A stretch of 64,000 bases of DNA, from the NCBI GenBank assembly GCA_035626775.1, contig DASPNA010000078.1, positions 42,771-106,770 of the forward strand, given 5' to 3'. The notes below the pieces were generated by a model. The model saw only the letters and a list, made by a program, of their open reading frames with translations. It was not told the DNA's origin and searched no databases. Below are positions 12,534 through 15,732 of this stretch, piece after piece. The number at the start of each line of letters is the position of its first letter. Position 1 is the stretch's first letter. Origin of the DNA: Thermoanaerobaculia bacterium (GTDB lineage Bacteria; Acidobacteriota; Thermoanaerobaculia; Gp7-AA8). Made by a program: the position numbers and the translations under genes.

Positions 12534-12627
12534 GGAGTCTCAGAGTCGCAGAGTCTCAGAGTCTCAGAGAGGTCCCAGGTCACGCCAGCGCGATCGGACC
12601 GTTCGAGACTCTGAGACTCTGAGACTC
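12534..12627. repeat. Palindromic element family 2 (tandem CAGAGTCT units / AGACTCTG units)
   Basis: gagtctcagagtcgcagagtctcagagtctcagag ... gagactctgagactctgagactc. Larger copy at 49329-49477. Confidence 0.75.
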
Positions 12628-13660
12628 ATTTCGCCGCAATGATGCGATCAACCAAGGTCTGATCGTCCGGAAGAAGACCGGAGCGAACCAGACGCGGCGT
12701 CAGCTCGCGCCAGGACGGCTCGAGCGCGAACGCGCGCGCGAAGAGCGGCACGGCTTCGTCGACGCGCTGCATGTTTGCGAGCGCCACGGCGTGCCAGTAG
12801 ATCATCTCCGCGTGGCGGCTCGGCGGAATGCCGGTGGTGGTCAACGCGATCTTCTCCGCCGCGCTGTACTCGCGCAACGCCGCCTCGTTATCCTTGTGCT
12901 CGACCGCGAGGTCACCCGCGTTCATGTGGTTGTACGCGCGCTGCAGCGCGACGAGACGGCGCAGCTCGGCAAGCGGCTGCGGATGATCGTCGACGCGCAG
13001 ATCGAAGACGCGGTCCTGCCACGCGCGTCCAGTGGTCTTCGCGTTGACGACGATCAGCGCCGCCGACTGCTTGCCGCGGATGTCGCCTCCGGCGGCCTGA
13101 GCGGCATCGAGCGCCGCGAGCATGCGCGTGGCGAGATCACCTTTCGTCTCCGCGTACGCCTTCGCCATCGCGGGCCAAACTTTGTCGTTGGCCATGAGAT
13201 TGGCCTGCACGGCGAAGTCGCGGCCGACGCTCACGGTTCCGCCGGCACTGCCGCATTTCACCTCGTCGCTCGATATCGCGTTGCCGGCGATGCCGCCCGC
13301 CGCGACGATGTCGCGCGCGCCGGTGAAGCTGGCCACGACGCCGCTCGCGTCGATGACGCCGACCTGCCGCACCTCGCATGAAGGATCGCCGCCGAGGAGA
13401 GCGCGCAGCGTGGCGGGAGCAGTCTTGCCCGCGCGCAGCAGATCGAGTCCGAGCTTGCCGTACGACGGATCGACGAAGCTCTGCGTCGCCACCGCGCCCA
13501 CTCCCGCCTCGGCCCACGGCACGATCTGTCCGACCGCGAACCAGTGCGACTGCACGGCCACGCCGATCTGTCCCGTTTCGGGATCGCGGGCCACGATCGA
13601 AAACGTAGCGAATGCGGGAGCGGCGACGAGCAGGAGCAGCGCGCAGAGCAGTGTCTTCAT
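12626..13660 (-). CDS. Secreted DUF1028-family protein with a C-terminal TPR-like tail
   Basis: ATG at 13660. Signal peptide MKTLLCALLLLVAAPAFA, then TFSIVARDPETGQIGVAVQSHW (DUF1028 hallmark). The upstream 274 aa of the naive 618-aa ORF are antisense to the neighbouring gene. Confidence 0.7.
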   Translation of the reverse strand: MKTLLCALLLLVAAPAFATFSIVARDPETGQIGVAVQSHWFAVGQIVPWAEAGVGAVATQSFVDPSYGKLGLDLLRAGKTAPATLRALLGGDPSCEVRQVGVIDASGVVASFTGARDIVAAGGIAGNAISSDEVKCGSAGGTVSVGRDFAVQANLMANDKVWPAMAKAYAETKGDLATRMLAALDAAQAAGGDIRGKQSAALIVVNAKTTGRAWQDRVFDLRVDDHPQPLAELRRLVALQRAYNHMNAGDLAVEHKDNEAALREYSAAEKIALTTTGIPPSRHAEMIYWHAVALANMQRVDEAVPLFARAFALEPSWRELTPRLVRSGLLPDDQTLVDRIIAAK

Positions 13661-13690
13661 GGCGCCCGAGTGTACGATGCGGGCGATTCG

Positions 13691-14722
13691 ATGACGACAC
13701 GCAAGCGCGCGAACGACTGGGAAGCGCTCCCCGATGCGGAGCTGCTCGACGTGCGCATCTGTAATCTGAACGTGCGCATTGAGGACACGTGGATCGAGGA
13801 GTCGCTCGCCGATCTCCACGAAGATCTCGAGCGCCGCGAGATCCCGTTCCGTCCGCACGCGTGGCTCTCGACGGACTGGTTCGTGCCTGATCACGTCCCG
13901 GGCATCGCCATCCCCTTCTATCTCGCGCATCCACGGCTGATGGCGCTGGAGCGGAAGCAGATGCTCGACGTGGAAGGCGGCACGCGGCAGGAGATGATCA
14001 AGATCCTCCGACACGAATGCGGCCACGCGCTCGACAACGCCTACGGCCTCGGCAGCGATCCTGTGCGCCGGCAGGTCTTCGGCGACCACGCGAAGCGCTA
14101 TCCCGAGCACTACCGGCCGAATCCGGCCAGCCGGCGTTTCGTGCAGCACCTGCGGCTGTACTACGCGCAGAGTCATCCGGCTGAAGATTTCGCGGAGACG
14201 TTCGCGGTGGTGATCGGCTCGCGCGGTGACGGCTGGCGCAAGCGCTACGCGGACTGGCCCGCGCTGCAGAAGCTCGAGTACGTCGATTCGATGCTGGAGA
14301 AACTGCGCGGAAAAATGCCGCGCCGTCGCAGCCGCAACAAGCCGGAATCCGTGCCGACGCTGCGCATGACCTTGCGCGAGTACTACGCGGACAAACGCGA
14401 GCGCTATCTCGTCAGCTATCCCGATATCTACGACCGCGATCTGCGACGCCTCTTCTCGGACGATCCGAAACATCAGCGCCACGAGCTCGCATCGCGCTTT
14501 CTGCGGCGCAACAGCGCGGAGATCCGCCGCCTCGTCTCGAACTGGACGGGCGAGTATCAGTTCACTCTCGAGCAGGTGCTAAAGGACATGATCGGCCGCA
14601 GCCGCGAATTGAAACTGCGCGCGGCCGGGCCGGAGCGGCGCCTGAAGATGGAGTTCGCGATCCTGCTCACGGTCAAGACGATGGACTTTCACTACAGCCG
14701 GAGGAACTGGTTCGCCCTATGA
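13691..14722 (+). CDS. Putative zinc metallopeptidase (Peptidase_Mx-like, HExxH)
   Basis: Starts MTTRKRANDWEALPDAELLD and contains HECGHALDNAYGL (HExxH). Divergent from the DUF1028 gene by about 30 bp. Confidence 0.7.
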   Translation: MTTRKRANDWEALPDAELLDVRICNLNVRIEDTWIEESLADLHEDLERREIPFRPHAWLSTDWFVPDHVPGIAIPFYLAHPRLMALERKQMLDVEGGTRQEMIKILRHECGHALDNAYGLGSDPVRRQVFGDHAKRYPEHYRPNPASRRFVQHLRLYYAQSHPAEDFAETFAVVIGSRGDGWRKRYADWPALQKLEYVDSMLEKLRGKMPRRRSRNKPESVPTLRMTLREYYADKRERYLVSYPDIYDRDLRRLFSDDPKHQRHELASRFLRRNSAEIRRLVSNWTGEYQFTLEQVLKDMIGRSRELKLRAAGPERRLKMEFAILLTVKTMDFHYSRRNWFAL

Positions 14723-15732
14723 AGCGCCTGCGCGTCGTGGTCCTGATGCATCCGTCGATGGTGCCGCCCGACAGTCTGGAGGGCTACACGGAGCAGGAGG
14801 CGTACGAATGGAAGACGGAGTACGACGTCGTCACCACGCTGCGCGAGCTTGGCCATGACGTCAAGCCGCTCGGCGTCTTCGACGAGCTGGGACCGATCCG
14901 CGCGCTCATCGAGGAGTGGAAAGCCGACATCGTCTTCAATCTCCTCGAGGAGTTCCTCGGCCGCCAGGACTTCGATCATCACGTGGTCAGCTTCCTGGAG
15001 TTGATGCAGGTGCCGTACACCGGTTGTCATCCGCGTGGGCTGATGCTCGCGCGCGACAAGGCGTTGTCGAAGAAGCTGCTCGCCTATCACCATCTCGCTG
15101 TGCCGAAGTTCGCGGTATTCCCGCGCGGGCGCCGCGTGCGCCGGCCGAAGGGGCTCGAGTTTCCGCTGATCGTGAAGAGCCTCATTCACGAGGCGTCGCT
15201 CGGCATCTCGCAGGCCTCGATCGTCGACTCGGACGAGAAGCTGCGCGAGCGCGTGACGTTCATCCATCAGCGTCACGGCTCGGACGCGATCGCGGAACAG
15301 TTCGTCGAAGGGCGCGAGTTCTACGTCGGCATCATCGGCAATACGCGCACCGAGGTATTGCCGGTGTGGGAGCTGGTGTTCGAGAACATGCCGCCCGGCG
15401 CGAGCTCGATCGCGACCGCGCACGTGAAACACAATCCGGACTATCAACGCCGCCGCGGCATCTATCAGCAGCACGCGGAAGATCTCGAGCCCGCGTTGCG
15501 CGAGCACATCATCCGCACGACACGCCGCATCGCGCACATCCTCGACCTCGATGGCTACAACCGCGTCGACTACCGGCTCCGCGAAGACGGGAAGCTGTAC
15601 TTTCTCGAGGCGAATCCGAATCCGGACATCGCGAAAAGCGAAGAGTTCGCATCGGCCGCGGAAGAGGCAGGGATGACGTTTCCGCAGTTGATTCAGCGGA
15701 TTTTGAAACTGGGGTTGCAGCGAGGCCGATGA
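14719..15732 (+). CDS. ATP-grasp enzyme, D-Ala-D-Ala-ligase-like
   Basis: Ddl-like N-terminal and ATP-grasp blocks (VVVLMHPSMVPPDSLEG..., FPLIVKSLIHEASLGIS, YFLEANPNP). ATGA overlap with the upstream gene. Confidence 0.8.
   Translation: MKRLRVVVLMHPSMVPPDSLEGYTEQEAYEWKTEYDVVTTLRELGHDVKPLGVFDELGPIRALIEEWKADIVFNLLEEFLGRQDFDHHVVSFLELMQVPYTGCHPRGLMLARDKALSKKLLAYHHLAVPKFAVFPRGRRVRRPKGLEFPLIVKSLIHEASLGISQASIVDSDEKLRERVTFIHQRHGSDAIAEQFVEGREFYVGIIGNTRTEVLPVWELVFENMPPGASSIATAHVKHNPDYQRRRGIYQQHAEDLEPALREHIIRTTRRIAHILDLDGYNRVDYRLREDGKLYFLEANPNPDIAKSEEFASAAEEAGMTFPQLIQRILKLGLQRGR

Follow-up and report, generated by a model that had tools for sequence, protein, structure and literature searches.

A translationally coupled gene pair encoding a Peptidase_Mx-family HExxH protein and a Ddl-branch ATP-grasp protein in at least six bacterial phyla

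The HExxH and ATP-grasp genes form a conserved pair

The DNA analyzed here (the window) is a stretch of 64,000 nucleotides from a Thermoanaerobaculia bacterium (assembly GCA_035626775.1, contig DASPNA010000078.1, positions 42,771 to 106,770), and our subject is a two-gene unit on its plus strand. The first gene (13691–14722) encodes a 343-amino-acid, zinc metallohydrolase-like protein of the Peptidase_Mx family (PF15887), hereafter the HExxH protein, and the second (14719–15732) a 337-amino-acid ATP-grasp protein, predicted to be an amide ligase of the Ddl (D-alanine–D-alanine ligase) branch that does not appear to be a Ddl itself. Both proteins lack a signal peptide and any transmembrane or hydrophobic segment, indicating a cytoplasmic location. 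The two coding regions overlap in the stop/start sequence ATGA (14719–14722), which was read directly and indicates that both genes are translationally coupled. Upstream, and outside the ligase–peptidase unit, a DUF1028 gene for a protein of 344 amino acids lies on the minus strand (12626–13660), so that exactly 30 base pairs (bp; 13661–13690) separate the divergent starts of the DUF1028 and HExxH genes. An earlier annotation made by a model from the letters of the window, here called the sequence-only reading, had listed these three open reading frames (ORFs), the 30-bp gap, an HECGH motif and the ATGA overlap, all of which are present. Public gene calls on the same contig, which belongs to a metagenome-assembled genome (MAG) of the Thermoanaerobaculia, give the same three genes, and identical proteins are found in Thermoanaerobaculia MAGs.

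Conservation of the pair was analyzed from both genes. An alignment of the HExxH family from a representative search (exhaustive; 552 clusters at 50% identity, E<1e-30) served to retrieve 80 loci from species-representative genomes (the genome set), which cover Bradyrhizobium and other Alphaproteobacteria, Gemmatimonadota, Planctomycetota, Nitrospirota, Acidobacteriota and Methylomirabilales. For the reciprocal set, 80 metagenome loci were collected around the ATP-grasp gene; 77 of them are informative. In 72 of the 80 genome loci, an ATP-grasp homolog with 50–70% identity to that of the window directly follows the HExxH gene on the same strand; of the eight loci where it does not, three are contig ends. 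All 77 informative metagenome loci carry the HExxH gene next to the ATP-grasp, immediately upstream in 76 and downstream in one. Because 72/80 and 77/77 loci are paired, the adjacency is far beyond chance. The 4-bp gene overlap recurs in 55 of 65 genome loci and 62 of 76 metagenome loci (117 of 141 pairs together), and pairing persists in homologs of only 33–35% identity. Over 65 loci, the pairwise identities of the two proteins are tightly correlated (r = 0.94; medians 0.59 and 0.58). The two genes are a co-evolved, translationally coupled and linked pair in at least six bacterial phyla. The sequence-only reading had proposed a coupled peptidase–ligase pair and had named conservation of its neighborhood in other genomes as a check; the pairing is kept across genomes, and the proposal holds on these counts.

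The only reversed order was seen in metagenome contig MTKY01071036.1 (locus L168), where the ATP-grasp gene comes first and the HExxH gene follows 115 bp downstream. The linkage of the pair survives this rearrangement.

No third gene is conserved around the pair: in ORF clustering, no outside family occurred in more than 12 of the 80 genome loci. This clustering was confounded by shadow ORFs of GC-rich genomes, and bulk Pfam scans of the neighbors agreed with its result. Upstream neighbors belong to 140 Pfam families over 107 loci, with a maximum of eight loci per family, and downstream neighbors to 152 families over 120 loci, with a maximum of 13 (homogentisate dioxygenase). The same scans revealed no conserved GS-like ligase near the pair and no co-occurring transporter, racemase or other biosynthetic gene. 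There was no mur/dcw gene adjacent to the pair in 160 loci (80 genome and 80 metagenome), and searches for an association with defense, phages or plasmids gave no PADLOC hit, no PHROGs hit and no plasmid copy. Small ORFs in the 500 bp to each side of the pair are conserved in no more than three to four closely related loci. This agrees with the sequence-only reading, which had seen no substrate gene; in the window, the flanks of the pair measure only 30 bp upstream and 67 bp downstream.

DUF1028, which the sequence-only reading had counted into a divergent three-gene module, is not a partner of the pair. Its adjacency is kept within the Thermoanaerobaculia at 87% identity but is gone at 79% and 77%, and it is adjacent to the pair in none of the 160 more distant loci; because of this loss, we regard it as local synteny. 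In the Thermoanaerobaculia relative at 79% identity (L090), DUF1800 and DUF1501 genes come between the pair and a DUF1028 gene about 5 kb downstream of it, an arrangement that fits a decay of local synteny better than a functional link. Two genes, not three, make up this self-contained operon.

In two Logan contigs (L087 and L088) whose HExxH proteins have 35% identity to that of the window, the pair follows genes for GNAT, EEP-like and unknown proteins on the same strand. At a distance of 2 kb, divergent genes encode LdcA (S66), a protein of the beta-lactamase family and a Mur-ligase (Mpl-like), a hint of peptidoglycan recycling that no other locus showed. An extended operon that would include the GNAT, EEP-like and unknown genes of L087 was rejected, as these genes were not seen elsewhere.

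A Ddl-branch ligase and a lethal-factor-like metallohydrolase

The ATP-grasp protein matches Pfam PF07478 (Dala_Dala_lig_C) with 86.8 bits, its alignment to Escherichia coli DdlB by hhalign has a probability of 99.5, and its best PDB matches are Ddl structures, yet only at E 1.7e-21. All NCBIfam equivalog models of Ddl score far below their cut-offs, e.g., NF002378 with 124 bits (cut-off 243) and TIGR01205 with 113.3 bits (cut-off 245.65). The Van-type models D_ala_D_lac and D_ala_D_ser reach 78 bits (cut-off 550) and 48 bits (cut-off 520), respectively.

For a comparison of individual residues, the window protein and 69 family members (n = 70) were aligned to E. coli DdlB (from NC_000913). 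The equivalents of DdlB K97, K144, E187, R255, D257 and N272 are invariant in all 70 proteins and those of E180 and E270 nearly so, and the window protein keeps all eight of these residues for ATP, Mg and acyl-phosphate. In window numbering, R282, D284 and N299 do not vary, and 67 of the 70 proteins have E297; this catalytic and Mg-binding segment (R282-D284...E297-N299), together with a family-specific NPNP motif that follows it, is encoded at 15562–15624 on the plus strand. The positions that hold D-Ala in Ddl are changed, with S150 replaced by A or G, K215 by D, E or A, S281 by E or Q, and L282 by E or D. G276 of Ddl is likewise replaced by D, E or Q, and the substitutions at the D-Ala positions are mostly acidic. 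Y216 is the sole D-Ala-binding residue that is kept (of E15, S150, Y216, K215, S281 and L282). In place of the N-terminal GG-S-E-EVS motif of Ddl, the family carries HPxLVPPDS...WKTEYDV, and its further signatures are YTGCNPRG, IATxKVKHDxxYQ, GYARIDFRL and EANPNPEIA..EEFA.

A bona fide Ddl, which the sequence-only reading had named as the outcome that would speak against it, was rejected: the protein reaches about half of the curated score, and the D-Ala-binding residues are replaced. Judged by these scores and residues, the ATP-grasp is not a true Ddl. From the intact ATP/Mg machinery and the replaced D-Ala positions, we infer that it is an active amide ligase with a substrate pair other than that of Ddl. 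The acidic residues found where Ddl holds the carboxylate of the second D-Ala hint at a cationic amine as one substrate. Public databases mostly name the members of this family (the window protein and homologs P0272–P0390) “D-alanine--D-alanine ligase”, which is probably a systematic mis-annotation.

The HExxH protein matches PF15887 with 35.3 bits (cut-off 27) over residues 102–174, a family carried by all homologs among the matches listed; no other Pfam family was hit at E<0.01. Its RHECGH sequence spans residues 107–112, of which H108-E109-C110-G111-H112 (encoded at 14012–14026, plus strand) form the predicted zinc-binding and catalytic HExxH motif. A second predicted catalytic motif, Y158-AQSHPA-E165-DFA-E169-TF (14162–14203, plus strand), would supply the putative catalytic tyrosine and a glutamate as third zinc ligand. 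R107, H108, G111, H112, Y158, Q160, H162, E165, D166, A168 and E169 are invariant in 42 diverse homologs down to 32% identity, and at least 90% of these homologs have E109.

The second motif offers a link to anthrax lethal factor, whose Y728 and E735 are its catalytic tyrosine and third zinc ligand. The pattern Y-x6-E-x-F-A-E-x-F equals Y728...E735FFAE739AF of lethal factor, the sequence of which was confirmed in PDB 1j7n. Searches with phmmer and hmmsearch against PDB (E up to 10) found no sequence match to lethal factor or the Pro-Pro endopeptidases. The AlphaFold2 model of the HExxH protein has a pLDDT of 93, and Foldseek searches of it against PDB gave nothing significant, the top entry being 4l7a, followed by anthrax lethal factor. 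The HExxH motif, the acidic motif downstream of it and the modeled fold fit PF15887 and its structure 4l7a, and the catalytic architecture fits M34, with an HExxH helix and a tyrosine and glutamate on a later helix. On its motifs, the catalytic half is a gluzincin like lethal factor and MtfA, whose characterized relatives cut polypeptides.

The remaining part of the protein, a basic linker and C-terminal helical domain (residues 206–343; 14306–14719, plus strand), is specific to the subfamily paired with the ATP-grasp. Helices are modeled with high confidence at residues 228–335. Across the family, this domain of about 140 amino acids has a median isoelectric point of 10–11, a net charge of about +13 and low conservation. 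Among IMG/VR contigs, relatives without the C-terminal domain are not located beside an ATP-grasp gene, and the one full-length relative is; because of this difference, we conclude that the basic domain goes with the pairing. Four putative viral contigs of IMG/VR (L177:2530-4233, L179:2788-4203, L183:2863-4230 and L185:2581-4257) carry an odd fusion of 455–567 amino acids, in which the Peptidase_Mx catalytic domain is joined to a domain resembling the C-terminal one of Fe/Mn superoxide dismutases (PF02777, with E from 1e-6 to 3e-13), with no ATP-grasp gene nearby.

Possible functions of the pair

We propose, with middling confidence, that the two proteins are a cytoplasmic coupled pair acting on a general component of the cell, with amide-bond formation by the ligase and amide-bond cleavage by the hydrolase. 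The ligase, derived from the Ddl branch, would keep ATP binding, Mg2+ binding and acyl-phosphate formation, and with its D-Ala pockets rebuilt would join another carboxylate to another amine, possibly a positively charged one. The hydrolase would contribute an active site built like those of anthrax lethal factor, the Pro-Pro endopeptidases and MtfA, extended by the basic helical domain. Both proteins probably work as a complex and may act on the same amide linkage, either by adding and removing it (writer and eraser) or by trimming before ligation. As neither a third gene nor a precursor ORF travels with the pair, the target would be general rather than a dedicated precursor, for instance the terminus or a side chain of some protein, or a peptide or metabolite common in the cell. 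We lean towards a peptide or protein, because the structural kin of the hydrolase act on polypeptides, because a small substrate would give the basic domain no obvious task, and because accessory biosynthetic genes do not accompany the pair.

Several points weigh against this proposal. A conserved operon is no proof that both enzymes handle the same bond, and the hydrolase could act at an earlier or later point of a pathway or on a small molecule. Four acidobacterial loci (L062, L066, L071 and L082) carry a full-length HExxH homolog with no adjacent ATP-grasp. The idea of a basic amine is read from alignment positions only, and the AlphaFold2 model of the ligase, built from a shallow alignment, has a pLDDT of 53 and is too poor for inspecting the pocket. 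E15 of Ddl corresponds to Q, K, R or A, an uncertain position as the profile alignment stops short of this motif. At two of the four acidobacterial loci, L071 and L082, the gene downstream of the HExxH gene encodes a PA-domain M28 peptidase instead of an ATP-grasp.

The same two enzymes could serve a small-molecule pathway without modifying any protein: a dipeptide or an amino-acid/polyamine conjugate would be the product of the ligase, and the zinc enzyme would hydrolyze that compound or a precursor. L-amino-acid ligases and glutathionylspermidine synthetase make products of these kinds, the nearest relatives of the ligase all use free amino acids, and glutathionylspermidine synthetase/amidase is a generally known precedent for a ligase and an amidase acting on one small molecule. 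The lack of a conserved substrate gene would suit such a pathway as well, but the structural neighbors of the hydrolase are endo- and aminopeptidases of polypeptides, the conserved basic domain would have little to do on a small substrate, and the further genes of a pathway (transporter, racemase or biosynthetic) do not co-occur; we consider this explanation unlikely, though a serious one. Editing of cell-wall precursors by a functional Ddl/Van-type ligase (D-Ala-D-X) and a VanX-like HExxH dipeptidase would fit the database name, the best PDB and Pfam matches of the ligase, and the one distant locus near genes for a Mur-ligase, LdcA and a beta-lactamase-like protein. It is improbable given the scores of 124 bits against 243 and, for the D-Ala-D-Lac model, 78 against 550, given that E15, S150, K215, S281 and L282 are not conserved and have mostly acidic replacements, and given that mur/dcw genes flank none of the 160 loci. 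Its hydrolase would also have to come from another family, as VanX belongs to M15 and the HExxH protein is related to M34/Mx enzymes.

A role of the HExxH protein without catalysis, in which it regulates the ligase or serves as its adaptor much as MtfA binds Mlc, would be in line with the 1:1 complex suggested by translational coupling and with a variable, basic C-terminal domain. However, zinc-binding and catalytic residues that are invariant down to 32% identity point to retained catalysis, and we rate this role as very improbable. We see hardly any prospect for the three-gene module, in which a secreted DUF1028 Ntn-hydrolase would work with the peptidase and the ligase. It is suggested by the 30-bp divergent gap and by the adjacency kept at 87% identity, and ATP-grasp plus NTN-hydrolase tagging systems (the Anbu system) have reportedly been described by Iyer et al. 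in 2009. Against it stand the absence of DUF1028 from all 160 distant loci and its loss already at 79% and 77% identity, the export leader of a protein whose supposed partners are cytoplasmic, and the fact that DUF1028 is not Anbu. An Anbu-type ATP-grasp/NTN-hydrolase tagging system was rejected as a candidate, since no NTN-hydrolase linkage is conserved. Only marginally more credible is a system resembling graspetides or other RiPPs (peptides of ribosomal origin that are modified after translation) with an unnoticed precursor. Graspetide clusters do have a core of an ATP-grasp and a peptidase (PMC8939145), but small ORFs near the pair are not conserved beyond a few close relatives, the window offers flanks of only 30 and 67 bp, and the ligase is Ddl-like and not of the MdnB/C type.

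A more specific form of our proposal of a cytoplasmic ligase–hydrolase pair, which we offer as speculation and think rather unlikely to hold, is an unrecognized, widespread tagging system. Here, a carboxylate or amine on a housekeeping protein would receive one amino acid, or several in a short chain, from the ligase. The peptidase would take this tag off again, its basic domain holding it to a target that is acidic or bound to nucleic acid, for example the ribosome. The pair would then be a functional analog, built from different families, of RimK or of tubulin-tyrosine ligase (TTL) with cytosolic carboxypeptidases. In RimK (with RimA/RimB) and TTL systems, a protein receives amino acids from an ATP-grasp enzyme and loses them again to a dedicated peptidase, and in bacteria the genes for RimK-type ligases and peptidases are often adjacent. 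The gene context of RimK is cited in PMC12239564. These systems follow the same logic with another ATP-grasp clade (the RimK Pfam match of the window ligase is only 17 bits) and another peptidase fold.

Other known systems resemble the pair in part. Ddl (DdlA/DdlB) shares the ATP-grasp fold and the ATP, Mg and acyl-phosphate residues with the window ligase and comprises its nearest sequence relatives, and the van operon with VanA/VanX likewise pairs a ligase with a zinc hydrolase that acts on a related dipeptide. The window ligase differs from Ddl and VanA in the curated cut-offs it fails and in the D-Ala-binding residues it has replaced, its partner is M34/Mx-like, and the pair has no cell-wall gene context. 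In glutathionylspermidine synthetase/amidase and in cyanophycin synthetase/cyanophycinase, a ligase and a hydrolase of the same amide bond are fused or adjacent. Their hydrolases (CHAP and S51) have other folds and families than the HExxH protein, with no sequence relationship detected. Anthrax lethal factor and the Pro-Pro endopeptidases (MEROPS M34) and MtfA (M90) have in common with the HExxH protein the HExxH motif and the Y-x6-E-x-F-A-E-x-F pattern; in contrast to them, it has no significant sequence match to these families, is cytoplasmic and no secreted toxin, and carries the extra basic domain and a ligase partner. BACCAC_01431 (PDB 4l7a), the structural founder of PF15887, and the SusCD-associated HExxH lipoproteins of PF15887/TIGR04549 belong to the same Pfam family and share the YA.S.P.ED.AE motif. 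In contrast to the HExxH protein, they are exported lipoproteins of Bacteroidota that are linked to TonB-dependent import and have no ATP-grasp partner, and TIGR04549 scores only 16 bits (cut-off 75) on the HExxH protein. Klebsiella CfmP, also considered, is unrelated, as its ATP-grasp is TupA-like.

Cassettes of an amidoligase and a peptidase are a known theme, carried out here by a Ddl-branch ligase and a lethal-factor-like zincin of the Peptidase_Mx family with a basic domain. Our literature search on PF15887/Peptidase_Mx and on ATP-grasps with a zinc metallopeptidase found no published account of the pair, although the survey of Iyer et al. 2009 might list it. In bacteria of soils and fresh water, among them Bradyrhizobium, Gemmatimonadota, Nitrospirota, Planctomycetota and Acidobacteriota, thousands of proteins named D-alanine--D-alanine ligase are very probably something else, and correcting the name prevents wrong inferences on cell-wall metabolism and vancomycin-type resistance. 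Their pairing with a lethal-factor-like zinc enzyme defines a compact and tractable two-gene system. If the pair modifies proteins, it would represent a new reversible modification in bacteria; if it makes a small amide, the gain would be a new metabolite and, of use in biocatalysis, a new specificity of an ATP-grasp.

The DUF1028 protein and a repeated palindrome

The product of the divergent DUF1028 gene is predicted to be secreted and Ntn-hydrolase-like. It matches PF06267 with 228 bits (cut-off 26.2) and PDB 2imh at E 8.8e-14. Its N-terminal hydrophobic leader, MKTLLCALLLLVAAPAFA, is followed by TFSIV; the leader is predicted to end in ...APAFA directly before this sequence, and the PF06267 profile starts exactly at T19. 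Cleavage by signal peptidase would leave a threonine at the N-terminus, and this residue would be the nucleophile should DUF1028 be an Ntn-hydrolase, as the sequence-only reading assumed. A family that is usually drawn as cytoplasmic would then have a member in the periplasm or outside the cell. Tetratricopeptide (TPR) repeats, which the sequence-only reading had assigned to this protein, did not reach significance: its tail is weakly TPR-like, with 17.9 bits for TPR_2 against a cut-off of 27.

On the other side of the pair, the 67-bp downstream flank lies between the convergent stops of the ATP-grasp gene and a UbiA-like gene and is made up of two hairpins (15739–15791, no strand assigned) with stems of 8–9 bp, which are reverse complements of each other. 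A scan for intrinsic terminators, which was uninformative, detected no T-run terminator after the ATP-grasp gene; the hairpins probably mark the end of the operon. They belong to a 19-nucleotide palindrome, GACGGGCT-NNN-AGCCCGTC, of which the window holds seven copies compared to 0.03 expected by chance, located at 15739–15791, 28579–28630, 32947–32997 and 48558–48576. The copies are mostly paired at a distance of about 32 bp, each being the reverse complement of its partner, and the element looks like a REP/BIME-like repeated extragenic palindrome.

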